A DNA stretch of 64,000 nt from Acidobacteriota bacterium (lineage in GTDB: Bacteria; Acidobacteriota; UBA6911; RPQK01; JAJDTT01), in NCBI GenBank assembly GCA_965209055.1, contig OZ242374.1, positions 3,904,001-3,968,000 of the forward strand, read 5' to 3'. The first letter of the stretch is position 1; the number at the start of each line of letters is the position of its first letter. Below the pieces are notes generated by a model, which worked only from the letters and a program-made list of their open reading frames with translations, did not search any database and was not told the DNA's origin. This document shows, piece by piece, positions 106 through 22,452 of this stretch. Position numbers and translations under genes: made by a program.

Positions 106-154
106 TGGGAGGGGGGGCCTACCTCCGCAGCAACGAGGAAGCGGGAAGACGGGG

Positions 155-168
155 GGACTAACAGTCCC
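155..168 (+). repeat. attL core (direct repeat)
   Basis: GGACTAACAGTCCC, identical to 21222-21235. Confidence 0.8.
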
Positions 169-276
169 AACTGTCCCAAAGTCAAAGACTACCGAACATT
201 AACGTTTACAGTGATTTACCGGGTTCTTCGCCGAATCGGTAAGGTGGTTGACTCCCTATGTTTGACATGCTGAACA

Positions 277-293
277 GGCAACAGACAGGCAGC
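277..293 (+). promoter_or_regulatory. Putative integrase arm-type binding site (left end)
   Basis: GGCAACAGACAGGCAGC versus GGCAACAAACAGGCAAC at 21112-21128 (15/17 identical); both lie about 95-110 bp inside the att cores. Confidence 0.55.
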
Positions 294-1196
294 CGAATCG
301 GCTCCTGAAAGCCGGCGCGCCCTTTTTCTCCCTTCCGTATCAACTGCCCCAAGTGCGGCTCCGTGAACGTCAACGCTGCTTCGCGTCGGCAATTGCACTC
401 GATATGTGGTCCACCATCCTCTGCGCAAATTCCAGACCGACAACTGCTTCTTGGTGAATGGTTGGCCCGTTACCCGGAGGCGGTGGTCCGAGTCGTCGGA
501 ACTGAAACCACAACCTCGGTTTGGGAACCAGTCCCCGACCCGGAACGTCCACGAGAACGACTTGGGAAGCTAATCCGTCCCACGCCGCAATTTGTTGAAG
601 GCGTTCGGGCGGAATTGTTTCGCGGGCTGGGTTCATCATTAGGGTTACTCCTTACTCGGTTGCACCACTGAGTTGAGTGGTCGTTACTGAGCACCTTCGA
701 GACACCGTAGCACGTCGAGGGGGTCCACTCCACGCTCACGTAGCTCCCATCCGATGTCGTAGAGCATTCCGAGGGTGACGGCGGATGAACAAGTCCGTAG
801 ACCCCTTCGGACGGGACGGCATTCCCGAGAATCAGCATCCCCGGCAAGTGCCCTATGGCGCAGTGGGGAGGACCCGGCGCTACTTGGCGTTCAAACTGCA
901 GATTGCCGTCGAGGACGGCAGGGCCACCCTCGTCTGTGTCGCTCCGGAGCCGGTGGTCACCAAGGGTCTGCGCTCCTGGATGGCGGCGCACCGGCGGTGG
1001 AGGATCGCTCCGTGTCAGTTGTGATCGAGATGACCACTCTCGACCGCCGCAAAGGTTTTTGGTGACTCGTTTCGGGCGTGCGTCAAGAGGGTCTCGCGCC
1101 CGATCCGGGATGTGAATGGGACAAAGGGGGTGGATTCACAAAAAGCGGTCCCGGTGACTCACAAATGCACTCTCCCCGATCTTTTTTCCTTTCAGT

Positions 1197-1370
1197 CAGT
1201 TACGGCCCCATTCCCGGCCACCGGGTGGCCGCACGGGGAAAATGGAGGTGGACGGGAGCGACCCCCCCTTTTTGCTGCCCGGTGCGGGCGCGGGGGTGTG
1301 GCGCAATTCACATTTGCGCCACACCCCCTGGGGGGTCGCTCCCGTCGCATTATCCCTTGGCGGGAAGGCC
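1197..1370 (+). repeat. ~175-bp structured element, copy 1 (inverted relative to 14463-14636)
   Basis: Highly similar to the reverse complement of 14463-14636. Nested stems GGGAGCGACCCCCC/GGGGGGTCGCTCCC and GGGGGTGTGGCGCAA/TTGCGCCACACCCCC. Confidence 0.85.
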
Positions 1371-1430
1371 TGAAATGTCACCTGTTGCCAGGAATGCCTG
1401 GTAACACTTGGGATAGACTCCATCGGAAAA

Positions 1431-1988
1431 GTGCCCGAGAGTCTGAACGTCCTGCACAACCCGGCTCTCAAGCCGGAAGTCACGGACTGCGCCCTCCTGG
1501 AGGGCAACCTGGAAGAGTGGATCGTCTGCTGTTCGCAGCGATTCTTCCCGTTGGCCCGGAGAATTGCCAGAGACGACAGTCTCGCCGAGGACGCGCTTCA
1601 GACCAGTTGGATCAAGATCCTCCAATCCATCAACCACGCTTATTTCAACGGTCCCAGGGCCTGCCCCTGGGTGACCCGGATTGTCGCCAACACGGCTAAG
1701 GATGTTCGCCGGCGACGGCGTCGCCGGAGAGAGGTTGCCTTCTTTGAAGCCGAAGCTCCGGGTCGGACCCCTGAGGAACTGGTCCAAGAGAAGCAGATGT
1801 TGGTCCTGCTGCGGGAAATGGTGGCGCTCCTCCCGGACACCTACCGCCAAGTGATCGAGTTGCGTGTGTATAAAGGATTCTCCACACGGCAGACAGCAGA
1901 CCTGCTCCATGTCTCCCGCTCGGATGTCTCGACCCGGTTGCATCGTGCCACCAAGCTGCTCCAGCAACGCATCGACGCCCGCCTTTAG
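1431..1988 (+). CDS. ECF-type sigma-70 factor
   Basis: Region 2 (LAEDALQTSWIKI...WVTRIVANTAKD) and region 4 (LPDTYRQVIELR...GFSTRQTADLL...VSTRLHRA). Start uncertain. Confidence 0.85.
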   Translation: MPESLNVLHNPALKPEVTDCALLEGNLEEWIVCCSQRFFPLARRIARDDSLAEDALQTSWIKILQSINHAYFNGPRACPWVTRIVANTAKDVRRRRRRRREVAFFEAEAPGRTPEELVQEKQMLVLLREMVALLPDTYRQVIELRVYKGFSTRQTADLLHVSRSDVSTRLHRATKLLQQRIDARL

Positions 1989-2542
1989 CCTGTCCTACCC
2001 AGAAGCTCCACGACCAACGGATAGCCTCAGTTAAGCGCCCCTTTCCTGTCCCTTCGACGATCCCGACCGGGGACCTTTTCTCCCGATGGGAAAAAAGACT
2101 GTGACCGATTCCGATTTCAGACGTTGTACTGAATAGAGGGGAAAATCCCAAGGCGTCAGGACACCGATGATGCGGGTGAATGACCACGGAGGCGAAAACA
2201 GAAGGGAAATCCCATGCAAGACATAAGTGTTTCTCTTACCGTTGAGGATGATTGTCAGGCGAACAAGCTAGGAGCAATGGCGGGGGCCGTGACTCTGCCC
2301 TATCTCCCTGACTCAGGCCTGTTCCGCACGATGCGGCACCCCCGCCAGACAGGCAAGAGTACCACCGCGTTGACAGCAATACGCCACGCTCCGAGGCTCT
2401 AGGATTGGACGGTGTTCGAAATCTACAATGATCCTGTTCGATATCCAGAACCCAGGTGGAAAAGCCCACGGATTAGGGTGCTGGGCGTCGTTCTTTGGGC
2501 GATCACCGCGGGCATCCAAGCGTTCCTCTACTGGTACTTCGG

Positions 2543-2956
2543 ATGAGCAAGCTGTCCAAGATCCTCTCCCCCGGCGTCGGATTCGTTGTGTGGATGGCCT
2601 TGCTTGTTTGCCTGTTCCTCTGGCACGATGTCGTGATCAACATTCCTGAGTCCTCTGTCTGGCACCAGCCGGTTCACCTTGTATCAAACCTCATCGTCGC
2701 GGCAATGGCGATACTCGTAAGCTTGGAAATCTCCAAGTTCAGGGAAAAGGCCAAGCCCCAGTCGGAGTGGGACACTTGGCATGGAGTGATTGCGATTTCT
2801 CTAGGAATCGCGTCTGCGGTGATCTACTGCGCGGCAGAGGTCGTTTTTGATTTCCGCGCTGGCCATTGGGCAGGAGCCGTGGCCTTTGGAGTGCCTGTGA
2901 TTCTGTACTGTATCTATATCGGTCGCAAGCAGAAGCAGCGATGCAGGCGAGTATGA
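2543..2956 (+). CDS. Hypothetical membrane protein (about 4 TM)
   Basis: Four hydrophobic segments in the ORF; ATG at 2543 chosen as the start. Confidence 0.55.
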   Translation: MSKLSKILSPGVGFVVWMALLVCLFLWHDVVINIPESSVWHQPVHLVSNLIVAAMAILVSLEISKFREKAKPQSEWDTWHGVIAISLGIASAVIYCAAEVVFDFRAGHWAGAVAFGVPVILYCIYIGRKQKQRCRRV

Positions 2957-3395
2957 TGCAATGGCGGTCAGGTTACGATAACAATCTGTGCAACCCGCCG
3001 CTACCCTTCCGGCTTGCCATTGACCCTTCCCTCTTCATATCCCCTATTCCGTAGGGAATCCGACCTGTCCCCGTGGACGTTGGCAGATGCGCGGACAATT
3101 TTTCCGAGGTGTCGACACCGGGTCCGCAATCGTTTCGGTCGTCACCATGGCAGGGAGTATCACACAGGTGATGAGAGGTGGAAACCAAACGTAGACCATA
3201 AGTGACTGATTTTATGGGGATAGATATCTCCTGACCATTTAAGTTGCCCCCACAGATGCCCTCAGTCATTGAAATGTCCCGACTCGCCTCGGTACGTAAA
3301 GCAGCCCACTAGGCCGACTGGGTCTCAGCTTGCTTAAAAACAGTCCGTGTCGCCTCTTCTTGTCGATCCGGCGGAGAACCATGTTCCGGAAGGCT

Positions 3396-4313
3396 CGCTC
3401 AACGAAGGCCGGAGCGCAAACCTCGGCGACACTTCCATCGGCAATCAGATCCCCGAGCGCAATCTGCTGCGCTCAACGAAGGCCAAGGCCCAAACCCCGG
3501 CGACACGCCCGCGGTGGGTGGGGCAATGCTGCTACGGGCAAGTACCCGCTCAACGAAGGCCGGAGCGTAAACTCCGGCGACACGCGTAGAGAACGCCTGG
3601 CCGATGTCGGCCACGATGTCCGCTCAACCAAGGCCGGAGCGTAAACTCCGGCGACACGTCAATCGTGAGCGGCACGCCGCGCAGGGAGCGAAGGCGCTCA
3701 ACCAAGGCCGGAGCGTAAACTCCGGCGACACTCGCGCCGGCGTGAGTTTCAACGACCAGGCGGGGCCACGCTCAACCAAGGCCGGAGCGTAAACTCCGGC
3801 GACACCCGTTCAGTTCGCACCAGGTGCCCCAAATCTGGTCCGCTCAACCAAGGCCGGAGCGTAAACTCCGGCGACACCCGCAACTTCTGGAACTGTTGTC
3901 CTGTGGCTCCAGCGCTCAACCAAGGCCGGAGCGTAAACTCCGGCGACACATGGCGGTCTCACCGTTGCTTCCGGTGGTGCCGTCCGCTCAACCAAGGCCG
4001 GAGCGTAAACTCCGGCGACACCTGCGCGTCGGCTTCGCGTCGCGGACCATCAACGCCGCTCAACCAAGGCCGGAGCGTAAACTCCGGCGACACACGGGGA
4101 CCGATTCGCAGGCCAGACTCGCATTGAGGCGCTCAACCAAGGCCGGAGCGTAAACTCCGGCGACACCTCTCGGACGCTAGCGTTGGACCAGCACGCCTTG
4201 TCCGCTCAACCAAGGCCGGAGCGTAAACTCCGGCGACACCCCGCGCGAAAGGCGCGCCGTTCATAGGCTACTACCGCGCTCAACCAAGGCCGGAGCGTAA
4301 ACTCCGGCGACAC
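3396..4313 (-). CRISPR. CRISPR array, 13 repeats of 37 bp and 12 spacers of 35-40 bp (type I-G)
   Basis: Plus-strand repeat CGCTCAACCAAGGCCGGAGCGTAAACTCCGGCGACAC starts at 3396, 3470, 3547, 3621, 3695, 3769, 3841, 3913, 3985, 4057, 4130, 4203 and 4277. Internal stem GCCGGAG/CTCCGGC. Degenerate repeats at the 3396 end and a leader next to cas2 imply minus-strand transcription. Confidence 0.98.
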
Positions 4314-4517
4314 CCCTAATCTTACAATGGACAGGGCTGGAACCAAGAGAATCGACGAAGAGCGCGCTCAGATCGAAGGAATCGATTGGGATTTTGGCCC
4401 CGTGGGGCGTCTTGGAACTCGCTGGTGGCTAGAACCAAATCACAAACGCCCTCAGGATTAGACTCATTGCACTGCACAACTGTAGTTTTGGCGGATCACC
4501 GGGGGTTCGCAAACCGC
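4314..4517 (-). promoter_or_regulatory. CRISPR leader
   Basis: Non-coding ~200 bp between the cas2 stop and the first conserved repeat. Confidence 0.7.
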
Positions 4518-4808
4518 TCAGAGGACCCAAGGGTCCCCGAGTCGGTGGGGTTGGGTGCGTCCGAAACAGATGCGGGCATCGTCGAACCCGCCATTAAGTC
4601 GGTATATAATCAGGGAATCGACCTTGGGGTCCATGACGTCCTGTATCTCCCCGATCATGCGAGCCAGCCGCGAGGGAGTTTGCCTGCACTCAAACACCGA
4701 GAACTGTACTCGTTCGCCATATTTCTCGCAGATCTGGGCAACACGCTTGAGTCGCAGTGAACCATCGCCCCGAGTGTCGGCGATATCGTATGTGATGAGA
4801 AAGTCCAT
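4518..4808 (-). CDS. cas2: CRISPR-associated endonuclease Cas2
   Basis: MDFLITYDIAD...RLKRVAQICEKYGERVQFSVFEC, 96 aa. Confidence 0.97.
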   Translation of the reverse strand: MDFLITYDIADTRGDGSLRLKRVAQICEKYGERVQFSVFECRQTPSRLARMIGEIQDVMDPKVDSLIIYRLNGGFDDARICFGRTQPHRLGDPWVL

Positions 4809-4811
4809 GAT

Positions 4812-5828
4812 TCACGGCAGCACGAACGGGGGATAGGCTGGTAGATCTCCCCGAAGATGACGCGCCAGAAGGGTCGATTGGATGTGCGGAAGCGCCCATC
4901 GACCCACACCCCGACGGAGCACGGGATGCCGTAGCTCCGTTGCCTTGTGTTTCTCCCACGCGTGAATCAGCAACTTTCGTCCCTCGTCGTTGAGGTAGAC
5001 CGCACCACCCGGCGTCCGCACGAAATGATCTTCCCGTAGCTGCTGACGTCGGACCAGCGACACGACGAAGCGGTCCGTAAGAGGCCGTAGCTCCTCGGCA
5101 AGGTCGAGTGCGAGCGACGGCCGGCCTGATCTCGGTCGGTGAAAGAAGCCCATTTGGTAATCGAGTCCAACGCTCTCAATGGCGCCGATGAGTTCCGTCA
5201 CCAAGAGTCCATAGCAGAAGCCGAGCGCCGAGTTTACGGGATCCCGGGGCGGCCGCCTGCTCCGGGCCAGGAATTCGCAATTTGAGTCCGCCAGGACTTC
5301 GCCCACTCCGCGAAAGTAAACGCGCGCCGCATCGCCCTCAATGCCCCGGACATGGTCCGGTGTCGGGGCGTCGCTGACGCGGGGCACCCGGACCAGAAGC
5401 TGGTCGGCACGCCGGGCAAGGCTGCCAGCCAGAACCGGATCCTTTGCGTCGCGACTCCATCGGCCGAGCACTTTTCTGCTGTTTTGTAGTTTCGCCGCCA
5501 CCACCGCCTTGGAGAGTGCCACCGCTTGAACCTCGTCGCTGACGGCGCGATAAAGAGCGGCCCGCAAGTGAACGTTTCCGCCCGTCTTGTGACCGACGAC
5601 GAATCGTATGGAGCCGCTCTGGCGGAGCGCCGCTACGCGCACACCCCTCTTGGCGCACGCCTCCAAGGCTTGGGACGTGATCTGGCCGCCACCAATTAGT
5701 ACGAGCCCATCGATCCCCTCGAGCGGAACACGCTGCTTCCCGTCCGGCGTGGATACGAGCAAGGATCCGCGGCGATGGCCAACACGCGCCCGGTGATTGC
5801 GCACATACAGCGTGCTCAGGTAGCGCAT
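4812..5828 (-). CDS. cas1: CRISPR-associated endonuclease Cas1
   Basis: RGIEGDAARVYF, RRPPRDPVNSALGFCY, GFFH, SLALDLAEELRP. Start placed at ATG 5828 (MRYLSTLYV), overlapping the end of cas4. Confidence 0.95.
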   Translation of the reverse strand: MRYLSTLYVRNHRARVGHRRGSLLVSTPDGKQRVPLEGIDGLVLIGGGQITSQALEACAKRGVRVAALRQSGSIRFVVGHKTGGNVHLRAALYRAVSDEVQAVALSKAVVAAKLQNSRKVLGRWSRDAKDPVLAGSLARRADQLLVRVPRVSDAPTPDHVRGIEGDAARVYFRGVGEVLADSNCEFLARSRRPPRDPVNSALGFCYGLLVTELIGAIESVGLDYQMGFFHRPRSGRPSLALDLAEELRPLTDRFVVSLVRRQQLREDHFVRTPGGAVYLNDEGRKLLIHAWEKHKATELRHPVLRRGVGRWALPHIQSTLLARHLRGDLPAYPPFVLP

Positions 5829-6433
5829 TTGAAGACTGTCCCAGTCATGTAGCGACTTATGCGGCGGGGTGCACTGGTCACCTCCGGCAAGCAATGAGCC
5901 CGGAGTTGACACTTCTGGCAGCGTTCGTCATTGGGAGCGTCCGGCAATTTTCCGGAAAGCACCTGACTCCGGATCGCCTCAACGATTTCCCGGACCTGCG
6001 CTCGGAGTTCTGGCGTGAAAGGAACCCGTAGGCGGCGCCTGGGTCCCCCGTACCAAATGTAGCCTGCCGGTATCTCCACGCCGAGCATTTCTTCCAGGCA
6101 CATGCCCTGCGCGCACACTTGCAGGTCGGCCGTATCGCCGTGTCGCACGCCTGACTTGTATTCGACCGGGCAAACCCGACCGCCATCGATCTCGACCGCG
6201 TCAGCGCGGCCCGAGAGGCCCAGCTCCTCCGACCACAGCGGTATCCCGCGTAGGACGAGCTTCCCACGTTCATGCCGGGAACGACCGGAGTCCACACGCC
6301 GGTGGGCCCGCGAGCCCCTTACGGTGTGTGCATTATCGCTCCATACGCCGTCGCAGTGAATCAGGGCGCACTGCCTCGCGCAATACGCGAAGTGCTCGAT
6401 CGCCGAAATCAGGACGACCGGATCGTCAGTCAA
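5816..6433 (-). CDS. cas4: CRISPR-associated exonuclease Cas4
   Basis: ISAIEHFAYCARQ, GRADAVE...PVEYKSG, QVCAQGMCLEEM, C-terminal CQKCQLRAHC Fe-S cysteines. Confidence 0.95.
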   Translation of the reverse strand: MTDDPVVLISAIEHFAYCARQCALIHCDGVWSDNAHTVRGSRAHRRVDSGRSRHERGKLVLRGIPLWSEELGLSGRADAVEIDGGRVCPVEYKSGVRHGDTADLQVCAQGMCLEEMLGVEIPAGYIWYGGPRRRLRVPFTPELRAQVREIVEAIRSQVLSGKLPDAPNDERCQKCQLRAHCLPEVTSAPRRISRYMTGTVFKCAT

Positions 6434-7319
6434 GTCTCTCTGCTCCGAAGCCGCGGGTCGTATCCGAGGTTCCCTTTGCCTCGTAGTTCACACTCCGCCA
6501 CGCCGCGTGGATTCCAAAGCGGGCCCAAGAACTCTTCCGATCGATCCGCCATAGATCGAGGAGCGCGTCAATCCCCGCACAGTTGAGAGGAATGCTCCAG
6601 ACGGGCCAAGCAAAACGAGACCGTGCCCGGCGATCATCTTCCCGCACCCACCCCCGTTGGATCGTGGAGGCGCGGACGCCCTTTCCCGTGCGCGCGTCCG
6701 TCCCGGTCCCCCGCACCGGAAAAAGAGCCAATCCAAAGAACGCTAGCGTCTCCACCACCGGATCAACCCACTTCGAAGCCGCGTCCGCTCCGGACCCCAT
6801 CCGCGCTATATCGAAACCGAGGCCGTTGTTTTCGATTCTCTCGCCCGTGCCCTCAAACGTTCGGCGAAGATCCTCCGTCCCCGGTGTGAAGTGCAGCTTT
6901 AGCAGGCGGTCATGCATGACGTACCCGCGTGGCACTGGCGGATCGAACGGAGAGTGTGCGACGTTACCCTTGTCATCGACGTGGAGGTCGGTGATCGTTG
7001 ACGAGAGCGTCCACGACAGGGGATCTGTGCGTACGGCGGAGGCGCGCGACGCGAATGCGTCCACCGGGACGTTTCTCGGCAGGTCTTCAATATTCGGCCA
7101 CGCCCTCCGAATCGGCATGCTTTCGAGCGTGGAGCGGCTCGGCCAGGAACTCGCCAGGACGGCTACTGGGTCCTCCTGCTGGCAGCATAGAACAGCTTGA
7201 GGCGTGCCCTCTTGTGTCCAACGCAGCCGTAACTTGGGACTGACAACCGTGGCTCCGACCGCTGCAAGCCACGCGTTGATCCACGACGCTGGCAACCCGG
7301 GGCATGTCACTTCCTTCAT
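6426..7319 (-). CDS. csb3: Type I-G short large subunit (Cas8u2/Csb3-like)
   Basis: Lies between cas3 and cas4; N-terminal GLPASWINAWLAAVG; NNGLGFD and PVVETLAFFGLALFPV motifs; 297 aa. Confidence 0.7.
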   Translation of the reverse strand: MKEVTCPGLPASWINAWLAAVGATVVSPKLRLRWTQEGTPQAVLCCQQEDPVAVLASSWPSRSTLESMPIRRAWPNIEDLPRNVPVDAFASRASAVRTDPLSWTLSSTITDLHVDDKGNVAHSPFDPPVPRGYVMHDRLLKLHFTPGTEDLRRTFEGTGERIENNGLGFDIARMGSGADAASKWVDPVVETLAFFGLALFPVRGTGTDARTGKGVRASTIQRGWVREDDRRARSRFAWPVWSIPLNCAGIDALLDLWRIDRKSSWARFGIHAAWRSVNYEAKGTSDTTRGFGAERLD

Positions 7320-10147
7320 GGTTTGGCCTCCACCGCGGGTATTGGCACACCGCTGGAGACCGCATGGTCGGCCGTCCGCAAAATAGATTCCATCAACGCC
7401 AGCCCCCAGGGCCCGAAGCTCTCGTTGAGCCGCCTGAATCGAGCTGGCTGTTCCCAGTCGACAACCGAAAGATCGGCGGAGGCTTCCAGCCGGACGCCGT
7501 CGATCTCCGATACCACTATCTCCGCTGCGCCGTCGATCACGGGCGGGATCAGTGGCCGTCCGCCCCCGTGATGGCTGATCACGAGATGGACGAGGAGGTC
7601 GGCTAGTCGAGGGTCAAAATCATTTTCCAATGTATCGATCCAAAGCCGAACCAGCCGTGCGGACAGCGTTTCATGTCGGCCGCCTCGGGGCCAACCGGCC
7701 GCGACTCGCGTTGCGTTCCAACGGTTCTTCGGCATACCCGACTTTGCGAGAAAGGGGGAGGCTCGCCCGTTCGGGGCTGTGGCGTTCGGATTGAGCCAGC
7801 GTTGGAAACGCGGATCAGCCTTGCCGGTGTCATGCCACCGGCCAGCGAGTATGATCACGTTAACGAGTTCCGAGGGAAGTCCAACCTGTTCCGCGATCGA
7901 ACGGGACATGATCCCCACCGCTTCTCCGTGAGTATCGAGGAGAACCGCCGTCGGGGCGAGTGAAGTCTCATCGAGTTCTTCGCTTGATTGTTCCGTCCTG
8001 CCGTCGGCAGGAAGACGAAAGCGCGGAACCTCGTTGGGCGAAAAAACCACCCTCGGTTCAAGGGCTTCCAGGAAGTCTCGCCATTCGGCCTCTTCCCACC
8101 CTGCGGGTGTGGTCTCGGACATAGCTTGGAGGAACTGTTCAGCGGCATCCTGCCGCTCGGCCTCGTCTATTTCCTCCTCGTCCGGGACATGCCCCAAAGC
8201 CTTCCGGAGCAGACTCCGCAAAGGTACGTTGCCAGACGCCGTTTCAAGGGGTTTGGTCAGAGAAACGCCGCCCATTCGTTGAATCGCCTCCTCATCAAGT
8301 GGCAATCCCCGAGCGGCGATCGACACGTCGAAGACAGGAGAAGTCGAATCGGGATTCCAGCCGAATTCGTCAAGCAGACCCCTGTCGGACGGAAGCAGGA
8401 CAACGTCTCCGGGACGGAGTTTCCTGATCGGGATGGACTCGATGGTGATCTGGTCGGTGCGGAGACGCTTGACTTCTTCATCCTCGCCGATGGCCCTTTT
8501 TATTGCGCCGATCGGGACGTTCACGACCTCACGGTCGAAGGGGCGCGGCCAGAGCCGTTGCTCGGCAACCGGGACGTGGCCCCGCCAGATGACCGACACT
8601 GTGTAGTCGATGCCTGAGATGCCGGAGAAATACGGCTCTACCGGGGCCTCTTCCAGAGGTGGCGTTGTAGTCTTAATCCATTCCCACAAGAGACCGTTGA
8701 GGATCTCTGGCGCACGTCCCGGATCGTCGCTCGGCTCTCGGAGTATTTCCGAGACCCTCCTTGGCGAAAGATCAACACTCGCCTTGGCCGGATCCAGGGA
8801 ATTCTTTAATCGTTCCAGCACCGTGTCTGGTTCAGTACCATAGACAGGCCACTCAGCCGGACCCGTCCTCTTGCGCGCTCCCCGTTTCTTGGGAGGCGTA
8901 TGGGCATACACGCCCCGTGCATGATCGAAGTGACCGAGGCGGTTGAGGCGACCCAACCGCTGGGTGAGCGCACGGACGCCGCAGGTTTCGGTGACCAGGT
9001 ACTCCGCGTCAATATCGGCACCCACCTCAAGTGTCTGAGTGGCGATGACAATCAGGTGCCGCGACCGTGCCGTGCCGGGGTTGCGGTCCGCAGCCATGCC
9101 CTCGACTCCGTCCAGGATCCGCGTTCGGATGAATTCCGCCTCCCGCTCCCGGGTTCGGCCTGTCAGGAGGAGCGTGTCGGCAGCCGATGCCGGGAATCGC
9201 TTCCGTAGAAGCGTGAGGACCCCTCGGGCCGTATCCGGCGTGTTGGCGAAGACCAGACATGACGAAGACGGCGACGCCTTCAGAAGATCCTCCACGGCCT
9301 CCGTCAAGTGCCGAACGGGGTCGCCCGATGAGCGGACTCGAATCGTCACCGGCTTGCTGGCGTCGAGCCTTTGCCCCACGGTAGCATTGCCTTCGTCGTC
9401 CGCGTTGAGATCAAATCGATCTCCCTCCGGCGCGTCTCCCGTTGCGGTCAGGGCCACAACTTGCGGCCGCGATCGTGGCGCTCCGAGGATCTCTTTCGCC
9501 CCCTTGGTGCATTCCGAGAGCGCGGAGACAAGGTTCGTGAGATGTCGGGCCAGGTGCGCTTCATCCACCAGGAGCAGACAGTCGCTTCCCGCAAACGCCG
9601 CGTCGACTGGGCGCATCATCCGGCTGGTTCCGTAGCCGCGAAACAGCAGACGAGACCCATACATGGGGATAGTCGACAGGAGTACCGCGGGACTGGACGG
9701 ATCGGTCGGACGCTTCGCTCCGACGCCGCCTCGGAGTCGGATTACTTCAAGGGGAGAAGCCGTTGGAGCGGCCGCCAGGGAACGCAAACGCTCTCCCACG
9801 ACGCGAAGGGGCCTCACGTCGCTGCCACGAAGAGTCTCACTGATCCACAGGGCATGTTCTGCGGTGGAATCGACAAGGAGCCGCCGGTTGACCAGCCACC
9901 AAATCCGGGTCGGGGCCGTGCGCTCGCTGGGTGGCCGTTCAGCTTGCGACGCCAGCCACCAAACGGCGATGTCCAGGCAGGCCGTCTTTCCCAGCCCAGT
10001 GGGAACCCCGATTTCAGTCGGCCAACGGTCTGATTCCGCGACCTTCTCCGCGAGTCGTGCCTGCCACGGGAAGGGCGGGCGCTCGTTGAGTGCCTGGTAG
10101 AACTCCGGGAACGTCGGCATCGGGTCCAGTCGTGGCGCATCAAACAT
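7316..10147 (-). CDS. cas3: Type I-G Cas3 (SF2 helicase with C-terminal HD nuclease)
   Basis: PFPWQ, PTGLGKT, DEAH, TQTLEVGADID, QRLGRLNR; C-terminal HD motifs WHDTGKAD, RHE and SHHG. Confidence 0.95.
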   Translation of the reverse strand: MFDAPRLDPMPTFPEFYQALNERPPFPWQARLAEKVAESDRWPTEIGVPTGLGKTACLDIAVWWLASQAERPPSERTAPTRIWWLVNRRLLVDSTAEHALWISETLRGSDVRPLRVVGERLRSLAAAPTASPLEVIRLRGGVGAKRPTDPSSPAVLLSTIPMYGSRLLFRGYGTSRMMRPVDAAFAGSDCLLLVDEAHLARHLTNLVSALSECTKGAKEILGAPRSRPQVVALTATGDAPEGDRFDLNADDEGNATVGQRLDASKPVTIRVRSSGDPVRHLTEAVEDLLKASPSSSCLVFANTPDTARGVLTLLRKRFPASAADTLLLTGRTREREAEFIRTRILDGVEGMAADRNPGTARSRHLIVIATQTLEVGADIDAEYLVTETCGVRALTQRLGRLNRLGHFDHARGVYAHTPPKKRGARKRTGPAEWPVYGTEPDTVLERLKNSLDPAKASVDLSPRRVSEILREPSDDPGRAPEILNGLLWEWIKTTTPPLEEAPVEPYFSGISGIDYTVSVIWRGHVPVAEQRLWPRPFDREVVNVPIGAIKRAIGEDEEVKRLRTDQITIESIPIRKLRPGDVVLLPSDRGLLDEFGWNPDSTSPVFDVSIAARGLPLDEEAIQRMGGVSLTKPLETASGNVPLRSLLRKALGHVPDEEEIDEAERQDAAEQFLQAMSETTPAGWEEAEWRDFLEALEPRVVFSPNEVPRFRLPADGRTEQSSEELDETSLAPTAVLLDTHGEAVGIMSRSIAEQVGLPSELVNVIILAGRWHDTGKADPRFQRWLNPNATAPNGRASPFLAKSGMPKNRWNATRVAAGWPRGGRHETLSARLVRLWIDTLENDFDPRLADLLVHLVISHHGGGRPLIPPVIDGAAEIVVSEIDGVRLEASADLSVVDWEQPARFRRLNESFGPWGLALMESILRTADHAVSSGVPIPAVEAKP

Positions 10148-12778: not shown

Positions 12779-13307
12779 ATTGTCCTCCGGATGCCGGTGG
12801 CCTTTAAAACGGTTTCAATTTGATCAAAAAAGGGAGATTTCATACGAGATTTCCTGGGGCCGGTGCGAACTCGAACACGCATAGCAACAGCAACTGTTGA
12901 TTTTCGTCCCCTGTGGGGCTGGCACCGACCCAAGCGGGTGATCATCACGGGGGCGGCCGATGAAGGAAACCGTCCCCCGATATCGCTCCGAGAGAGTGAA
13001 GACGGATCGAAAGTGTCTTCCATGTGGGAACGATTACCGTCCAGAATGAATGAAGGGTTCTCTGCGAAAGACCCCTTACCATGAATGACCTTAACAGCAA
13101 TGGATGACTGTAAACAGGAAGGATATCAATAGGAAGTGATCCTAGTCTGACGATGTGGTCCATTTATCTGATTGTTCTATGAATTTTTCCCGAAGTCGCT
13201 ATCATTGCCCCGCAGAGTCCGATGCGTCTCCAACCCGGCTCCGGGATCGTGACGCTGTATGGGACGCTGAACCGGGTTTAGTAGTGGGCTCCGACAAGGA
13301 GGGGCGA

Positions 13308-13443
13308 ATGCAGAGTCCCGGCGAACTGAGGCGAGAGATCGAGGCGCTGTGGGATCTCATCTACAAGCTCAGCGCCGCCCAACTGCGGATCAGCGTGAGC
13401 ATCGACGTCCGCACCGTCCTGCAGGAGGTCATCGAGAGCGCTT
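13308..13443 (+). pseudogene. N-terminal fragment of a GAF/sensor-type regulator
   Basis: RBS AAGGAGGGG, then MQSPGELRREIEALWDLIYKLSAAQLRISVSIDVRTVLQEVIESA, a coiled coil leading into a GAF-like start; the frame then runs into antisense of the truncated protease. Confidence 0.5.
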
Positions 13444-13449
13444 GGAGTC

Positions 13450-13709
13450 CATCCCAAACCGTGAGCCAGGAGAATCGCCAGGACGCTGATCGCATAGGGG
13501 ATTCCGAGAATGAAGTTCGGCCACACGAGGAAACCCGCCGTGTCGGATGCGGATTGACCGTTGCCCATCATGTCGCTGGTATACCAGAGCGACCCGGTCC
13601 ACAGGGTTGTGGCGAGGGTGACGAGGAGCAGCAGAAGGGCCAGCTTGAAACGGGGCTTCTCCGGCACCGGCGCCGGCCAGTTCTTGTCTTGGGGAGGACG
13701 TTCCGTCAC
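13450..13709 (-). pseudogene. Truncated site-2 (M50) membrane protease N-terminus
   Basis: LALLLLLVTLATT...GIPYAISVLAILLAHGLG; the sequence breaks at the expected HExGH zinc motif. Confidence 0.6.
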
Positions 13710-13739
13710 CGACGGAGGACTCGTCCGGAGGCAGGGAGA

Positions 13740-14006
13740 TCAGCCGGAGCGGATTTCTTTCCCGGGTTTGAAGCGAACGGTCTTGCCGGGAGGAATGGGG
13801 ACCACGGCTCCCGTCCTGGGGTTGCGGCCGATGCCACGCTTGCGCGGTTTGACGAGAAAGACTCCAAAGCCCCGCAATTCAATGCGTTCCCCATGCTTCA
13901 GGGCACGCTTCAACACCTCCAGCACGGTGTCGACGGCCTCTTCGGACCTCACTTTGGTCAATCCCACCTTTTCGGAGACGCGTGACACAATCTCTTGTTT
14001 GATCAC
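13740..14006 (-). CDS. HU/IHF family DNA-binding protein
   Basis: GERIELRGFGVF...RKRGIGRNPRTG...IPPGKTVRFKPGK, 88 aa. Confidence 0.95.
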   Translation of the reverse strand: MIKQEIVSRVSEKVGLTKVRSEEAVDTVLEVLKRALKHGERIELRGFGVFLVKPRKRGIGRNPRTGAVVPIPPGKTVRFKPGKEIRSG

Positions 14007-14041
14007 AGCTTGGAAGTGCCCCCTGAGGTGCTAGCGGGTGT

Positions 14042-14071
14042 CTTATAGTGGGCATAGGTTCGGGATGTCAA
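14042..14071 (-). promoter_or_regulatory. Sigma-70-like promoter of the HU/IHF gene
   Basis: Minus strand TTGACA-18 nt-TATAAG, 35 nt upstream of the GTG start. Confidence 0.55.
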
Positions 14072-14462
14072 GGTTCGGTTCAGGCTCCTCAAGTGAGAAG
14101 TTAATCTGGAGTCGGAAATGGACTTTTCCGGGAGGACCGGTCGGAGACGAGGAAGGAGCGGCGGATCACCCGTCGCCCCTCCTCGATCACTACCATGAGT
14201 GATTTCCCGCCGGGAACCAATCCCGACATCCGGCACTGGTTTGCCCGAAGTCCATGAGGGTGGTCGAGACGCAGTCTCGCAGGTTTCACCGCAGCGGGAA
14301 CAGTCTTTCCGGAAGCTCCGATAGCCGCAGTCCGGACAGCGGTAACGCGGCGGGCGCGGAGCCTCTCCACCGCCTGCCTCCTGAGAGTCTCCAGCCGTTC
14401 CTTGTTGTGGATCTCAGGGATGCTCATACATCCCATATTGCCGGTCACGGGTGTCTTTTATT

Positions 14463-14636
14463 GGCCTTCCCGCCAGGGATATTTTGGAAGGGAGCGACCC
14501 CCCAGGGGGTGTGGCAAAGATGTATATTGCGCCACACCCCCGCGCCCGCACCGGGCAGGAAAAAGGGGGGGTCGCTCCCTTCCACCTCCGCTTTCCCCGT
14601 GCGGGCGCGGCGAAGCCGGGAATGTGGCCGTAACTG
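14463..14636 (-). repeat. ~175-bp structured element, copy 2
   Basis: Reverse complement of 1197-1370; substitutions concentrate in loops, with some near the inner-stem apex. Confidence 0.85.
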
Positions 14637-14829
14637 CATTAACGACAAAGAGTTCGGGGAAATCGGAGGTGTAAGTCAAAAGGCTTCCGGGATGGAACTC
14701 GCGTCCATTGTCTCACTTACACTCCCGGATCGGGCGCGGAACCCCACTTTTCAGCGGTCAAGATCGACCTCCCGGAAGCCGGCTCAAACGCCAGATCGCG
14801 AAACCTGCCGGGGGGACGACCACGGCGGA

Positions 14830-16053
14830 TCAACGGAGCCGATCAGATGCCGGTTGCCGACTCTCGCCAGCCAGATAGCCCGCCCAGTCGTCCATCAGAC
14901 GCCTCCGCCGCTCGAACAGGTCCGTGCGCCGGTAGGCGGCCTCGACCGGGTTGCGGACCTTGTGCGCCAAAGCCGCCTCCGCCACCTCGCGCGGATGATC
15001 CGTCTCCTCCGCTGCCCAGTCGCGAAAGCTCGACCGGAACCCGTGCGGCACCGCCGCGATCGTCAACCCCCGGAGCAGTTCCGACATGGCCGTATTACCG
15101 ATGGGCTTTCCACCCACCCTCGGAAAAACGAGTGGGCTGCCGCCACCGAGCGCCTGCGCCTCCTCCAGGATCTCCAATGCTCGTCGGGCCAAGGGGACCC
15201 GGTGCTCCCGATTCCCCTTCGTCCGTGCGGCCGGGATGGTCCACACTCCTTCCTCCCGGTCGATCTCCTTCCACGCGGCCCCACGGACCTCGCCGGAGCG
15301 TGTCGCCGTCAGGACCAGGAACTCGAACATCAGCTTCAACAACGGCCGCTTGTTAGATGCCCGCACCGTCTGGAGTGCGGACGCCACTTCACCGTGAGGC
15401 AACGCCCGCATGTGACGCACGGCGTTCCCCTGCGAGCCGAGCACCGGCCCAATCCGGTCGCACGGGTTGTCGGGCCGAAGATCCATCGCCACGGCCCACT
15501 CCAGGACCGCGCGGATGCGCTGGCGCAGCTTCCGTGCCGTGGGGGCCTTCTCGTGCCAGATCGGAGCGAGGATTCCGATCACGTCGGCGCTCGTCACCTC
15601 CGCAATCGGCATCTTTCCGATATGAGGCAGGACGTGGCGCTCCAGGCTTCCCAGCCAGAGCTGCGCATGCAGGGGGGAGCGCCAGCCCGGACGCAACTGC
15701 TTCCAGACCGTCCGGGCGGCGTCCGCGAAGGTGGGCATCGACTCGGCCCGCCGCCTCTCGGCCCGGGGGTCGCCCCCGTCGCGGGCCAGCTTCCGGTTGG
15801 CGAACGCCTTCTCGCGCGCTTCCTTGAGCGAGACGAGGGGGAATCCGCCGAGGCCGAGCTCGGTTCGGCGGCCCCGGATCGTGATGCGCTGGATCCAGCC
15901 CCGGCTGCCCGTGGGCCGGACGTCGAGATAGAGGCCTTGGCCGTCGCAATAGCGTCCGGCCTGGTTCACGTTGCGGACAAAGGCCGGTGTCAGAGCATTG
16001 AGGGGATGCCGACCGCGCGGCTTGCGTTTCGGAGGTCGTTTTGTAAGTCTCAT
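14830..16053 (-). CDS. P4-type tyrosine integrase with arm-binding domain
   Basis: GRYCDGQGLYL...GRRTELGLGGFPLVSLKEARE; TATRSGEVRGA; K; HGFRSSFRDW; LAH; AY; RRRLMDDW. Start placed at ATG 16053. Confidence 0.93.
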   Translation of the reverse strand: MRLTKRPPKRKPRGRHPLNALTPAFVRNVNQAGRYCDGQGLYLDVRPTGSRGWIQRITIRGRRTELGLGGFPLVSLKEAREKAFANRKLARDGGDPRAERRRAESMPTFADAARTVWKQLRPGWRSPLHAQLWLGSLERHVLPHIGKMPIAEVTSADVIGILAPIWHEKAPTARKLRQRIRAVLEWAVAMDLRPDNPCDRIGPVLGSQGNAVRHMRALPHGEVASALQTVRASNKRPLLKLMFEFLVLTATRSGEVRGAAWKEIDREEGVWTIPAARTKGNREHRVPLARRALEILEEAQALGGGSPLVFPRVGGKPIGNTAMSELLRGLTIAAVPHGFRSSFRDWAAEETDHPREVAEAALAHKVRNPVEAAYRRTDLFERRRRLMDDWAGYLAGESRQPASDRLR

Positions 16054-16056
16054 GCC

Positions 16057-16190
16057 TACCACTATACCTACCACCATATGGTGGATGCAAGGGGATGGAG
16101 TGGATCGGTATGGGACAAGTTCGGATGTCCGAACTAGTGTTAAATCAACTAAATATAGACACTTATGGACAATTCTGGACTTACCTGGAC
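16057..16190. promoter_or_regulatory. att-arm-like region of the P4-type integrase
   Basis: TACCACTATA/TACCACCATA tandem, AT-rich stretch, and three TGGAC at 10-bp phasing (16166-16190). Confidence 0.45.
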
Positions 16191-16866
16191 AATGTATCCG
16201 ATTCAATCAAGGATTCCTTGCGGGAAGGATTCGAGGAGGCTTGACCGACTATCCCGAGTGCCAGGACTGTGTGGCCATTTATTCGGAGTTCACCATGTGG
16301 CGAACCAGCGAAACCGAGATTTTGGACAAAGACAATAGGTTTACGACAAGCGGATCTGTACCGGGAACTCCAGAAACCGGAGATTCAGGCCCTGTTCAAG
16401 GAGAATCCGCACTGCTCCGAGTCGGTCCCCGGACCGGGCCTCGGTTCAGCGTCCCCAGGCTTCGACTCGATCCCCGAGCCGGGTTGGAGACGCATCGGAC
16501 TCTTGCGTCGCCACCGATAGCGTTTTCGGGCAAGATTTCATAATACTGTCAGCAAATTGCGAGCATTGTCATATTAGGGTCACTTCTTCCATATACACCC
16601 GCACCTTCTGTACGATATCCTTTGAATCTCATGTGAAGCGGCGGCGGCGGGTAGATCCTACTGCTATACGCTGTCGGGTCCAGCGGAGGTTGTGTGTCTC
16701 GCGTTAGTGGAGGTCGCGCGGAAGAAGTGCTTGGATCGTTGCTAGCCGAACAGTAATCGCACCCACACGGGGAAGGGTATGACCTCAGCCTTTCGACCCG
16801 GCCCCGGTGCGATGTCCGGGAGGCGGTATCGAACCTCGCCGCCCCCTTGGATTTGAAGGAGAAGAA

Positions 16867-19954: not shown

Positions 19955-19959
19955 TCCTC

Positions 19960-20079
19960 CGCCCGGTCTTCGCCCTGGAGGACTTGAACGCCTACGCCGA
20001 TTCTCTGGAGCCGTGGTACGATTCGCACCACGGCGAAGAACCCGGATCCAGAAAGGAGGAGATGCATGGGCATCTATAA
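19960..20079 (+). pseudogene. C-terminal remnant of an HTH excisionase-like protein
   Basis: RPVFALEDLNAYADSL...; the stop overlaps the integrase start, as in typical xis-int pairs. Confidence 0.4.
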
Positions 20080-21172
20080 GGTGAAGGATCGCCGGGGGAG
20101 ACGACGTTTCGTCGTCAGCAAGTACTGGCCGCATGGATCCGGTCGGCTCCGAATGTACGCCCCCAATTACCGGAGCGCGCAGGCGCTTCAAACACGAATC
20201 GAGTCCAGCATCCTGGACGGCACATGGAAGCAGCTCAAGCGGGAACTGGCCGGTGGGAACCGCACCGTCTGGACGGTCCGGAGCTTCTACGAGCGTTTCT
20301 TCGAGGAGTACTGCAAACCTCGCATGCGCTCCCGGCGTCGCTATGCGCTCTCGTTCAAGAGCCTCAACGCCGTGCTGGGGCACATTCCCCTGAAGGAGTT
20401 CCAACGCAAAGACCTGTACCGCTACGTCGCCAAGAGGAAGAAGCAAGTGCAGCCGGCCACGGTGAACCGGGACATTGCCGCCATCAGCAAACTGTTTTCC
20501 TTTGCGCTGGAGTGCGGAGAGGTGGACACGCACCCGCTGGTGAGATTCCCCAAACTCAAAGAACCCAAGAAGGTCTTCCGGCCATTGACGGTTCAACAGT
20601 TCCGCGACCTGGTCGAGGCGATGGACAACCCTTACCTGCAAGCCATGGTTTCGGTGATCGGCGAGACGGGGATACGGAAAGGCGAAGCGTTGTCGCTCAC
20701 CTGGAAACGGGTGGACCTATCCCGGAGGCTGCTATGGGTGGAATTCACCAAGAACGACGAGCCGAGGGAGATCCCGCTGTCGAAGTACGCCGCAGGATAC
20801 CTGACCGGGCTGGTTCGCTACCTGAGCACCCCATACGTCTTCGTCAACACCCGGACGGGGACGAAATGGGTGAATCCGGACAAGCCCTTGCGCCGGGCCG
20901 CCGATCGGTTGGGGTTGAAGGTCGGCTTTCACGACCTGAGACGATTCCGGTGCAGCCACTGGCTGATGCAGGGGGTGGACGTGAGGACGGTGCAGAAGCT
21001 GATGGGCCACTCCTCGATCAGCACGACGATGCGCTACGCAGGTTACGTCAGTTCTCATGCGCTTGCCAGCATACGGGAGGCACAGGCTACCGAAGACTCA
21101 CAAATGCTATCGGCAACAAACAGGCAACGGGCAGGAAATGGGAGGAACGATTTGAGAGGAGCATCGGGATAA
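20066..21172 (+). CDS. Tyrosine recombinase/integrase of the island
   Basis: PATVNRD, TGIRKGE (R), TKN (K), HDLRR (HxxR), LMGH, TMRY (Y); RBS AGGAGG. Confidence 0.95.
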   Translation: MGIYKVKDRRGRRRFVVSKYWPHGSGRLRMYAPNYRSAQALQTRIESSILDGTWKQLKRELAGGNRTVWTVRSFYERFFEEYCKPRMRSRRRYALSFKSLNAVLGHIPLKEFQRKDLYRYVAKRKKQVQPATVNRDIAAISKLFSFALECGEVDTHPLVRFPKLKEPKKVFRPLTVQQFRDLVEAMDNPYLQAMVSVIGETGIRKGEALSLTWKRVDLSRRLLWVEFTKNDEPREIPLSKYAAGYLTGLVRYLSTPYVFVNTRTGTKWVNPDKPLRRAADRLGLKVGFHDLRRFRCSHWLMQGVDVRTVQKLMGHSSISTTMRYAGYVSSHALASIREAQATEDSQMLSATNRQRAGNGRNDLRGASG

Positions 21173-21192
21173 CCTGTTGAAAGGAAAGGATC

Positions 21193-21224
21193 AGTCCCGT
21201 AGCTTAGCAGGACAGAGCGGCGGA
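21193..21224 (+). pseudogene. 5' half of a tRNA gene (Arg-like) within attR
   Basis: AGTCCCG-TA-GCTT-AGCAGGACA-GAGC-G-GCGGA matches the acceptor 5' strand, D arm and anticodon-stem 5' strand; there is no T arm. Confidence 0.6.
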
Positions 21225-21235
21225 CTAACAGTCCC
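21222..21235 (+). repeat. attR core (direct repeat)
   Basis: GGACTAACAGTCCC, identical to 155-168. Confidence 0.8.
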
Positions 21236-21240
21236 CCCTC

Positions 21241-22452
21241 CTATGGACCCAGGTTCCGCCACCAGCGCAGCTCCAGACCCCTCTCGTTCACCGCGACGAC
21301 GTCGGACCACCCGTTGCCGTCCATGTCGGCCACGATCACGGTGGCGCCCAGGATCCAGTGCTCCTTCAGCGGGTGCTTTTTCCAGGGATCTTTGGGATCT
21401 CCGGAATTCTCGAACCAGGCAATCTGCCCCTTCTGGCCGAAGCTGGTGGCCACCACGTCCAGATCGCCGTCCTTGTCCAGATCGTGGGGGACACCCTCGA
21501 AGCCGGACCAGAAACCTTCCTGGATGTTGTGCATGCGCCAGCGGTGACCCCGGCCCGGTTTGCCGGTGTTCTCGTACCAGACCAGGTAGTGGCGCTCCGG
21601 AGCATCTCTCCCCAGCAGCCCGCCCGCCATGATCAGATCCAGGTCGCCGTCCCGGTCGAGGTCGACAGGCGTGCCATGCATGGGCAGATGGCGGAGGCTG
21701 ATGACGTGCCGCCGCCAGGGACCGGCGGCCGGATGACCGCTGTTCTCGTACCAGAGGACCATGCCGGCCACGCGGGCCGAACCCACCAGGTCGATCAGGC
21801 CGTCTCCGTTGAAGTCGCCCGCGCGGATCATCCGGGTCTCGAACCGCCCTTCGTCCACGACGTGGGCGGGCCACTCTTCGTGCTGCCACGGACCGGGATT
21901 CCGATACCAGGTAAACTTGTTCCCGAGCCGCCAACTGGAAGCCGCTACGTCCGGGCGGCCGTCCCCGTCCAGATCGGCCACGTCCACGTCGTAGGCCCCC
22001 ATGAGGCCGCCGCTGGTGATGGAGTGTCTTTTCCACGATTCGGTCTGTGCCGGGTTGCCCGGATTCTCGAACCAGAAGACGTCGCCGTAAAAATTGTCGA
22101 TCCCGACCAGATCGATATGCCCGTCCTGGTTGATGTCCGCCAGCCGGTGCCGTTCGTAACGGCCTTGCCAGTCCTCGTTGGCGATGTAATGGCGCCGGAA
22201 CTTGCCGGACCCGTCGTTCTCGTACCAATAGAAGGCGTTGTGGATGCGGGATCCCTTGGTCCCGCAATCGGAGCTGGAAAGATCCAGGTCGCCGTCGCCG
22301 TCCAGGTCGGCCGCGGCCACGGCATAGGCGTAGGTGTAGTCGTTGGAGATGAGGTGTTCCTCGAACTTCAGGTCCTTCGCCTGGAGGGCCAGGCTCGCGG
22401 TGGCGAGTCCGAGAAAAATTCCATAGGAACTCCGATATCCGGTCCAGTTCAT
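21241..22452 (-). CDS. Secreted FG-GAP/VCBS repeat protein
   Basis: Seven DxDGDGxxD-type repeats with WYEN motifs; signal peptide; start ATG 22452 after GGGAGG. Confidence 0.9.
   Translation of the reverse strand: MNWTGYRSSYGIFLGLATASLALQAKDLKFEEHLISNDYTYAYAVAAADLDGDGDLDLSSSDCGTKGSRIHNAFYWYENDGSGKFRRHYIANEDWQGRYERHRLADINQDGHIDLVGIDNFYGDVFWFENPGNPAQTESWKRHSITSGGLMGAYDVDVADLDGDGRPDVAASSWRLGNKFTWYRNPGPWQHEEWPAHVVDEGRFETRMIRAGDFNGDGLIDLVGSARVAGMVLWYENSGHPAAGPWRRHVISLRHLPMHGTPVDLDRDGDLDLIMAGGLLGRDAPERHYLVWYENTGKPGRGHRWRMHNIQEGFWSGFEGVPHDLDKDGDLDVVATSFGQKGQIAWFENSGDPKDPWKKHPLKEHWILGATVIVADMDGNGWSDVVAVNERGLELRWWRNLGP

Follow-up and report, generated by a model that had tools for sequence, protein, structure and literature searches.

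An integrase island in an Acidobacteriota genome is very probably one copy of a tRNA-Arg-derived element family that now lands in multicopy REP palindromes

We analyzed a stretch of 64,000 nucleotides (the window; genome positions 3904001-3968000 of contig C1) from an Acidobacteriota metagenome-assembled genome (MAG), here called G000. The genome is a single contig of 6,077,182 bp with 62.8% G+C, and the metagenome runs that contain its sequence are sponge metagenomes. The left part of the window holds an island (155-21235) that carries a tyrosine integrase and a CRISPR-Cas locus and is bounded by a 14-bp direct repeat. This island is very probably one copy of an integrase-driven family that derives from tRNA-Arg elements and now lands in a multicopy repetitive extragenic palindromic (REP) sequence. 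The first-pass annotation of the window had proposed that an element targeting tRNA(Arg) had switched to, or secondarily used, a REP hairpin. Sequence comparison supports this switch through a half-tRNA match, tRNA-adjacent homologues, a clade of REP-type integrases and a multicopy REP, and the annotation as a whole was partly confirmed. The scale goes beyond its estimate, with about 25 elements and several target classes. Positions are those of the window unless given as genome positions.

The direct repeat GGACTAACAGTCCC is present as claimed, on the forward strand at 155-168 and 21222-21235. The first copy is the attL core, with a 7-bp overlap CTAACAG at 158-164, and the second is the attR core, a repeat of the same sequence with its overlap at 21225-21231. 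The host side of attL (121-154, forward strand) comprises the left flank of the REP and a G-run and ends in GAAGACGGGG; this type of 34-nt flank recurs at genome positions 172932 and 789047. The host side of attR (21236-21243, forward strand) starts with CCCCTCCTA and comprises the C-run of the REP and CCTCCTA, lying over the stop codon of a gene for an FG-GAP protein. The annotation had also stated that removing the island restores a palindrome. Joined through the core, the left and right host halves indeed form a 9-3-9 palindrome, and the same palindrome is found intact elsewhere in G000. The 14-mer occurs 44 times in the genome: 12 copies are intact REPs with the same outer flanks and the other 32 are element junctions. 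Two conserved sequences mark these junctions, namely a distal end (CAACTGTCCCA.AGTCAAAGACTACCGAAC...) and a tRNA-like stretch 3' of the integrase gene. The proposed position between two convergent host genes holds on the right, where the FG-GAP gene (21241-22638) lies on the minus strand, but not on the left, where 1-105 is part of a 147-bp second copy of a gene 3' end. The inverted partner proposed at 106-127 is at best a decayed half-site.

On the element side of attR, 21193-21224 (forward strand) appears to be a vestigial 5' half of tRNA-Arg(UCU), positions 1-31, which would form the P-side core arm of attP. Its nearest host tRNA is tRNA-Arg(TCT) at genome positions 307704-307778 (among 69 ARAGORN calls, some of them spurious). 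The alignment suggested for verification gave 25/32 identity, ungapped, to the first 32 nt of this gene, and sister elements reach 26-28/32. Among 2,000,000 random 32-mers of the genome, a sample that may contain tRNA genes and the elements themselves, 7 reached 25/32 or better. The 7 nt after ...GGA (21225-21231, CTAACAG) fall on anticodon-loop positions 32-38 of the tRNA-like half, and the placing of the centre of the repeat at the loop was correct in this respect. The identification of the half-tRNA rests on alignment and homology. When 30 distinct P arms were compared with the tRNA, conservation rose from 0-20% at positions 1-3 through 40-90% in the D arm to 90-100% in the bases immediately preceding the overlap. 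This graded decay suggests that tRNA function is no longer selected and that integrase binding still is. The acceptor end would decay because no tRNA is rebuilt any more, and the conserved 15-20 bp beside the crossover would be the core-binding site of the integrase.

The distal (P') arm of attP (169-340, forward strand) is conserved in all 25 elements described below and in a tRNA-type element of a congener (G003); in the island it is 90% identical to that of minimal elements. The 8-mer CAGGCAAC lies on both arms in the forward strand, at 275-282 on the P' arm and at 21121-21128 on the P arm, within the 3' end of the integrase gene (int). On the distal arm it stands about 107 nt beyond the core in 24/25 elements, and on the P arm about 100 nt before the core in 25/25. 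There are 214 copies of this 8-mer in the genome, counting both strands, and those on the arms are candidate arm-type sites. The complete attP would consist of a P arm (the int 3' end with CAGGCAAC, an A-rich stretch and the tRNA-Arg(UCU) 5' half), the 7-bp overlap, an arm beginning with TCC and a P' arm of about 170 bp.

The integrase of the island (20066-21172, forward strand, 368 aa) is a tyrosine recombinase, Xer-like by sequence, that matches Pfam PF00589 with 97.8 bits (cut-off 27.1; E 8e-28). NCBIfam models all scored below their cut-offs (XerA 104 vs 220, XerC 95 vs 335, XerD 87 vs 330, integron integrase 58 vs 265), and the PDB matches are XerC-like, XerA and XerD proteins and HP1 Int. 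The motifs GIRKGE (202), HDLRR (289) and MRYA (322) are found in 25/25 integrase copies. Read as motifs and not from an aligned structure, they would provide the catalytic Arg, the His-x-x-Arg and the nucleophile Tyr. A tblastn search with the 368-aa query detected 26 full-length copies in G000, with 84.8-100% amino acid identity, plus fragments. In all 26, a tRNA-like half and then a core follow about 20-80 nt after the stop codon, one of these halves being cut by the contig end. Twenty-five elements of 2,698 to 25,101 bp were delimited, which together cover 248,842 bp (4.09% of the genome); a further integrase is present at genome position 2198720, where the distal end was not located. The only gene common to all elements is that of the tyrosine integrase. 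It is open in 25/25 copies over 354 codons, with a median dN/dS of 0.135 (range 0.05-0.23, 295 pairs), and the element integrases are under purifying selection.

There are at least four attP/REP classes in G000. Class A, which includes the island of the window, has seven elements with the overlap CTAACAG in the AB-type REP. Class B has nine elements with the overlap CTGTTAG in the same REP, in the opposite orientation. The five class C elements have the overlap TTTCCAA (TTTCTAA in one) and targets of the type GGGCGA-N7-TCGCCC, and the four of class D have the overlap TTTCCTA (TTTCCAA in one) and targets of the type GGGGG(T)-N7-CCCCC. The attP cores of classes A and B differ only at the central triplet, AAC or GTT. 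In each of the 24 elements that have two ends, attL and attR have the 7-bp overlap in common; the end of the contig truncates the 25th. In class D the block of identity between attL and attR is just these 7 bp, TTTCCTA, and therefore both strand exchanges should lie at its edges. The sequence CTCC stands on the same side of AAC in 12/12 empty REPs, 7/7 class A elements and 8/9 class B elements. The REP is thus oriented, and the orientation of the insert follows the polarity of the overlap, as is expected of a tyrosine recombinase. Congeners have the further overlap variants TTTCTAG, CTTCCAG, CTTTCCT, CTTTTAG and CTTTCAG, with at least ten overlaps across four species. Several copies in G000 are identical or nearly so: B_4495k equals B_6054k at 2781/2781 bases with different flanks, B_3004k and B_6074k have 1 difference in 2717 bases, and D_2810k and D_3698k are identical except for a 1.9-kb insert. 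At genome positions 6074466-6077182 the single contig terminates inside the tRNA-like half of an element copy, where the assembly was probably broken or linearised.

Integrase homologues were searched in 41 genomes of the order; none of the conclusions depends on the unpublished genome G016. Those with at least 82% identity are confined to the same genus, where G004 has at least eight full-length copies and G001 has no full-length integrase of the family (best E 3e-14). Inspection of the insertion sites of homologues, which the annotation had recommended, was informative. The integrases of G003 (82%), G035 (71%) and G010 (70%) lie directly upstream of complete tRNA-Arg genes (TCT or TCG), and two homologues with 52-53% identity have the usual orientation, being placed on the 3' side of tRNA-Arg(TCT). 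The G003 element has 47 kb. At the near end stands a 5' half that belongs to the element and restores the tRNA-Arg(UCU) gene; at the far end are the displaced host 5' half and loop, followed by an arm homologous to the distal arm of G000. This far end was not found within 37 kb by use of the G000 distal motif and the tRNA halves, and a pattern search located it 47 kb away. In G000 itself the tRNA-Arg(TCT) gene is unoccupied.

A tree of the integrases was built with 41 rows, without the partial rows L048, L050 and L051. In it the 36 REP-type rows group together as a clade (98/91), below which G003 branches, then G035 with G010; on the other side of the midpoint root are the 3'-type homologues. 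Members of classes A and B are interleaved, with 5 changes each, and one A/B pair are sisters at 100/96; the central triplet therefore flips often. The overlap TTTCTAA of G000 is one change from the tRNA loop CTTCTAA, and it is plausible that it represents the first step of retargeting from tRNA to REP.

The following course of events would account for these findings. An ancestor would have recombined with the anticodon arm of tRNA-Arg(UCU), supplying a replacement 5' half, a state still seen in one congener and in more distant relatives. Mutations in this genus would then have fitted the overlap and inner arms of attP to REP-like palindromes, which resemble an anticodon arm in having two short inverted repeats around a 7-bp spacer. 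Integration would be a conservative strand exchange at both edges of the 7-bp overlap, whose polarity would set the orientation of the insert. A multicopy intergenic target would permit transposon-like proliferation in one genome with the genes unbroken.

A broader proposal is that the target is set almost wholly by the 7-bp overlap and the geometry of short inverted arms, that a few attP mutations can reprogram the integrase, which may read the REP as a hairpin or cruciform, and that REPs and elements co-evolve, some REP families (those with loops one or two changes away from the tRNA-Arg(UCU) loop) perhaps descending from att sites similar to an anticodon arm; we regard it as rather doubtful. 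It is improbable that the integrase acts on extruded or single-stranded REP hairpins by structure, in the manner of integron integrases on attC. The targets are perfect or near-perfect palindromes, the arms beside the overlap differ widely by class (GGA/TCC, CGA/TCG, GGT/CCC) although the integrases are 85-95% identical, and there are weak, sub-cutoff matches to integron-integrase models, all of which would agree with such recognition. However, those models reach 58 bits against a cut-off of 265, the attP is not a long palindrome and the ancestral target is a duplex tRNA gene, with classic recombination in the anticodon arm. In addition, attL and attR both keep the full overlap, as two-strand exchange predicts.

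Orthologous positions in the congeners (G001 to G005) were inspected for unoccupied sites. The FG-GAP gene of the right flank (gene Y) is kept in 5/5 congeners and is followed by a REP. In G001 this REP is intact and of the same family, with AAA for AAC, and in the others it belongs to a different family. The left flank of the island does not adjoin this spot in any of the five. Where A_2828k sits in G000, G001 shows the same gene end and, after it, an intact REP with one core base different, G002, G003 and G004 have another REP family, and G005 has no REP. The element C_5216k is absent from G001, G004 and G005 (3/3 congeners), where its flanks are 88-130 bp apart. In the search for an empty site of B_2974k the left flank proved to be itself a repeat. 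In G001 the flanks of A_835k (genome positions 835566-839108) are separated by 315 kb and lie on opposite strands, which represents another rearrangement. We also observed that one intergenic position may hold different REP families across G001-G005 (L013-L017, L112-L116), a rapid turnover, and that the REPs at these orthologous spots share a frame of G-run, loop, C-run and CTCC.

The borders of the island were compared with the gene order of the congeners. Gene X lies beside gene Y in 5/5 congeners; in G000, X is at genome position 4498041, adjoining a B-type element (4495133-4497913). Gene L, left of the island, neighbours gene P' in the congeners, with a 6.2-kb insert between them in G004, and P' is at position 4495119 in G000. 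From these neighbour relations it follows that G000 carries an inversion of about 570 kb (genome positions 3925219-4498041). Three of its four edges are at or within about 130 bp of att cores. We infer that the inversion resulted from one exchange between the attR of the A-type island and the attL of the B-type element at 4.495 Mb, as the A and B overlaps are the same sequence in inverted orientation. Before the exchange the island would have stood between L and P' and the B element between Y and X. The left border (genome positions 3902277-3904154) is a mosaic of the true 3' end of gene L, a 1363-bp insert similar to an insertion sequence (IS), an intact REP together with 58 bp copied from the end of gene P', and the 147-bp copy of the L 3' end to which window positions 1-105 belong. 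The IS-like insert is multicopy in G003 and G005, and in G002 the 3' end of gene L stands three times in tandem. In a separate observation, an intact REP, a solo B-type distal end and an A-type attL at genome positions 172932, 484587 and 789047 share identical 34-nt half-flanks, which hints at att-site exchange or segmental duplication.

Several observations weigh against the descent of the island from a tRNA-Arg integrator that now uses REPs. Its two flanks are non-neighbours in 5/5 congeners, and there is therefore no true empty site for the island as it now stands; a mis-join of the MAG, which has many near-identical repeats, may lie behind the apparent inversion. No REP was found at the empty C_5216k intergenic region in the three congeners; it follows that REPs turn over faster than the species diverge. 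By arithmetic, about one 14-bp repeat is expected in 22 kb, and at least 60 direct-repeat families are listed there. The bounding repeat is nevertheless meaningful because of its genomic context, as all 44 copies are either an intact REP or an element junction, and these contexts ruled out chance. ARAGORN called no tRNA in the whole window, and Rfam detected none in 21100-21320 at the gathering score or at E up to 10. Both tools need more than half a tRNA, so that their silence is not evidence against the match. The integrase tree is rooted at its midpoint, and the tRNA-adjacent fragment L051 (165 aa) shares 90.6% identity with class D and 86.7% with the tRNA-type copy of G003; because L051 is equally near class D and was left out of the tree, a single switch from tRNA to REP is not established. 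Finally, the 2.7-kb minimal elements show no excisionase-like open reading frame (ORF), and direct evidence of excision or of a circle was not obtained; sponge-metagenome sequences placed on a 17.4-kb stretch with two sister elements gave hundreds of spurious joints from FG-GAP repeats.

The non-syntenic flanks in 5/5 congeners, the duplicated fragments and IS-like insert of the left border, and a nested P4-type integrase and an inverted module remnant inside the island would also suit a fossil mosaic, that is, a 21-kb region with ends from different events, immobile as a unit, in which the repeat marks two REP halves. This is quite improbable. The attL and attR have the same overlap in direct orientation, the distal arm retains its 90% identity to minimal elements, and int is open with its catalytic motifs. 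Moreover, both odd junctions are accounted for by a single exchange of attR with the attL of the element at 4.495 Mb, and such an exchange would leave an excisable unit.

The REP palindromes are multicopy extragenic repeats of the host. Class C-type palindromes have 48 exact copies and 144 with up to 2 mismatches, and the related REP family GGCGGTTGGAAACCGCC has 52 and 198. The AB-type REP, counted as a 19-mer, has 7 exact copies and 54 with up to 2 mismatches, the wider count taking in junctions. Reversed-pattern controls gave 0, in one case 3. The suggestion that a multicopy REP would offer many landing sites thus agrees with the data, as there are 12 unoccupied exact-core copies of the AB type and dozens to hundreds of copies of related families. 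That the palindromes are parts or footprints of the elements (terminal repeats or solo att scars), which would make their own targets, is highly improbable: more than half of the exact AB-type cores are occupied (32/44 being junctions), in several REP families the loop (TTTCCAA, TTTCTAA) is similar to that of tRNA-Arg, and the half-flanks at 172932, 789047 and 484587 are common to intact REP and junctions, but no new sequence would remain after conservative site-specific recombination, there are only 5 class C elements for 48-52 exact and 144-198 near copies of REP families C and G, G001 has intact REPs at orthologous spots without a full-length integrase of the family, and other congeners have other REP families at the same spot. 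As for the type of REP, the annotation had pointed to a GTAG-family doublet. This did not hold, the flanks varying among TAGG, TGGG, CAGG, CTGG and TTGG with no constant GTAG. Membership in the GTAG/RAYT REPs (RAYT, REP-associated tyrosine transposase) was rejected on account of this variable tetranucleotide and of the Y1_Tnp matches in the genome, which are just two and weak (30.8 and 23.6 bits). The match of 30.8 bits (genome positions 1142970-1143203) lies in a 307-aa open frame that is surrounded by class C-type REPs and has a class C element some 600 bp away.

Anticodon-centred attP sites of tRNA-gene islands were reportedly described by Williams in 2002. In the Islander survey (Hudson et al. 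2015, PMC4383910), such an attP is given for 2083/3919 islands, a 5' fragment for 159/3919 against a 3' fragment for 3760, and a mean of about 3 islands of all kinds for genomes with any. The island of the window resembles those described there in having a tyrosine integrase beside attP, a crossover in the anticodon loop with a symmetric stem and a partial tRNA copy. Its family differs from them in that it splits and regenerates no tRNA, targets an intergenic REP, carries a 5' fragment and reaches tens of copies per genome. The relatives in G003, G035 and G010 are ordinary tRNA-gene islands. A regenerated tRNA with a displaced fragment, which defines an Islander island, is found in the homologous G003 element and is absent from the window.

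There is also a resemblance in general features to the tycheposons of Prochlorococcus (Hackl et al., bioRxiv 10.1101/2020.12.28.424599), which have a tyrosine recombinase, tRNA-derived att sites including tRNA-Arg(tct), defence or adaptive cargo, tandem insertion and inversions. Tycheposons occupy 7 tRNA/tmRNA genes with 1-2 per genome, against 25-26 copies at REPs here. No DEDD/DDE transposase was found as the mobility enzyme of the present family, the shared gene being that of a tyrosine integrase. The transposases of known REP-targeting IS belong to the IS110 and IS3 families. These IS (ISPpu9, ISPpu10, ISPa11, ISPsy8, ISRm19/22) also use REPs as specific multicopy intergenic sites and are linked to genome plasticity (Tobes & Pareja 2006, PMC1525189). 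They move by transposases and carry no cargo, whereas the present family has a tyrosine integrase, apparently conservative recombination, a tRNA remnant in its attP and cargo of up to 25 kb.

The palindromes of G000 are similar to those of REPIN/RAYT systems in being multicopy, G+C-rich and extragenic, often in clusters or doublets. They differ in having no constant 5' GTAG, and the present element uses REPs as targets and does not produce them. REPIN/RAYT systems were reportedly described by Bertels and Rainey in 2011. Integrative mobile elements exploiting Xer (IMEX) at dif and integrons at attC share a Xer-like catalytic domain and a palindromic site with a short central region. Unlike these, the present element encodes its own recombinase, and its target is a REP family, not dif or attC. 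A full-text literature search, which did not cover subscription-only papers, gave no description of a REP-targeting element that has a tyrosine integrase and a tRNA-derived attP.

The family may therefore show how a site-specific island integrase leaves a single-copy tRNA target for a multicopy palindrome similar to an anticodon arm, with intermediate states preserved. An island with one site would have become a proliferating, transposon-like carrier, with 25-26 copies and 4% of the genome. The vestigial tRNA half would be a molecular fossil that gives the direction of change, its graded decay marking the part that the integrase still needs. The series of overlaps, together with the flipped A/B triplet and its opposite insertion, resembles a natural experiment on the specificity of tyrosine integrases and could guide engineering.

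The cargo of the island includes an ECF-type sigma factor (1431-1988, forward strand; Pfam Sigma70_r4_2 4.7e-13, and Sigma70_r2). A CRISPR array of 13 repeats with a spacing of 72-77 nt (3395-4333, forward strand) was found as a direct-repeat family. Next to it, on the minus strand, are genes for Cas2, Cas1, Cas4, a Cas3-extension protein, Cas3, GSU0054 and GSU0053 of type I-G (I-U) (4518-13023; Pfam, NCBIfam). The signature of this type is present, with GSU0053/GSU0054, a Cas3 with an HD domain and the Cas3-extension protein, for which the NCBIfam type I-G model is borderline (64.7 bits, cut-off 65). We take the GSU0053/0054 families to stand for type I-G/I-U. The CRISPR-Cas locus (3395-13023) looks complete.

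A second, unrelated integrase of the P4 type (14830-16206, minus strand; Pfam Arm-DNA-bind_3, Phage_int_M and Phage_integrase) is nested in the island. It stands between 50-nt inverted repeats (13214-13263 and 16454-16503) that are 86% complementary, and 13214-16503 may be a nested second mobile element. A P4-type integrase of 454 aa with the same three Pfam domains is also found in a sister element (genome positions 3374134-3394737), beside two more integrase genes.

A conserved noncoding module (805-1382, forward strand), with a long hairpin and TTGCGCAA-N7-TTGCGCAA, is common to all 25 elements. It has about 335-435 bp, is more conserved than int and forms a hairpin stem of 17-19 bp; its variation is, by eye, without codon periodicity, and the genome has 67 copies or fragments of it. 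The 2.7-kb minimal elements have no conserved ORF in the 1.4 kb that precede int, and the module is possibly regulatory. An inverted partial second copy (14304-14744, minus strand; query 590-1033 matches element 14590-14150) is a remnant of another element inside the island. Two module copies elsewhere in the genome are miscalled by ARAGORN as tRNA-Val.

In 13 sister elements, 94 ORFs of at least 175 aa were scanned, hand-picked from 122, with flank and integrase ORFs left out; 47/94 had Pfam hits at E up to 1e-5. Restriction-modification genes (type I, IIG/IIL, III and ISP) include three type I systems, a type III-like pair, a type ISP enzyme, MmeI-like and Eco57I-like enzymes, and NotI with a D12 methylase. 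There are also AbiTii, GmrSD (with Schlafen/AlbA), FRG proteins, several IS transposases and further integrases. The cargo of the family is mostly defence, and the family seems to spread defence genes around the genome of a sponge-associated Acidobacteriota, with att cores coinciding with the breakpoints of a large rearrangement. Large, eukaryote-like proteins with leucine-rich repeats (LRR) or fn3 domains are part of the sister cargo as well. The class C elements at genome positions 1118770-1127420 and 5216580-5224160 encode LRR proteins of 1114-1182 aa, and another element encodes an fn3 protein of 949 aa.

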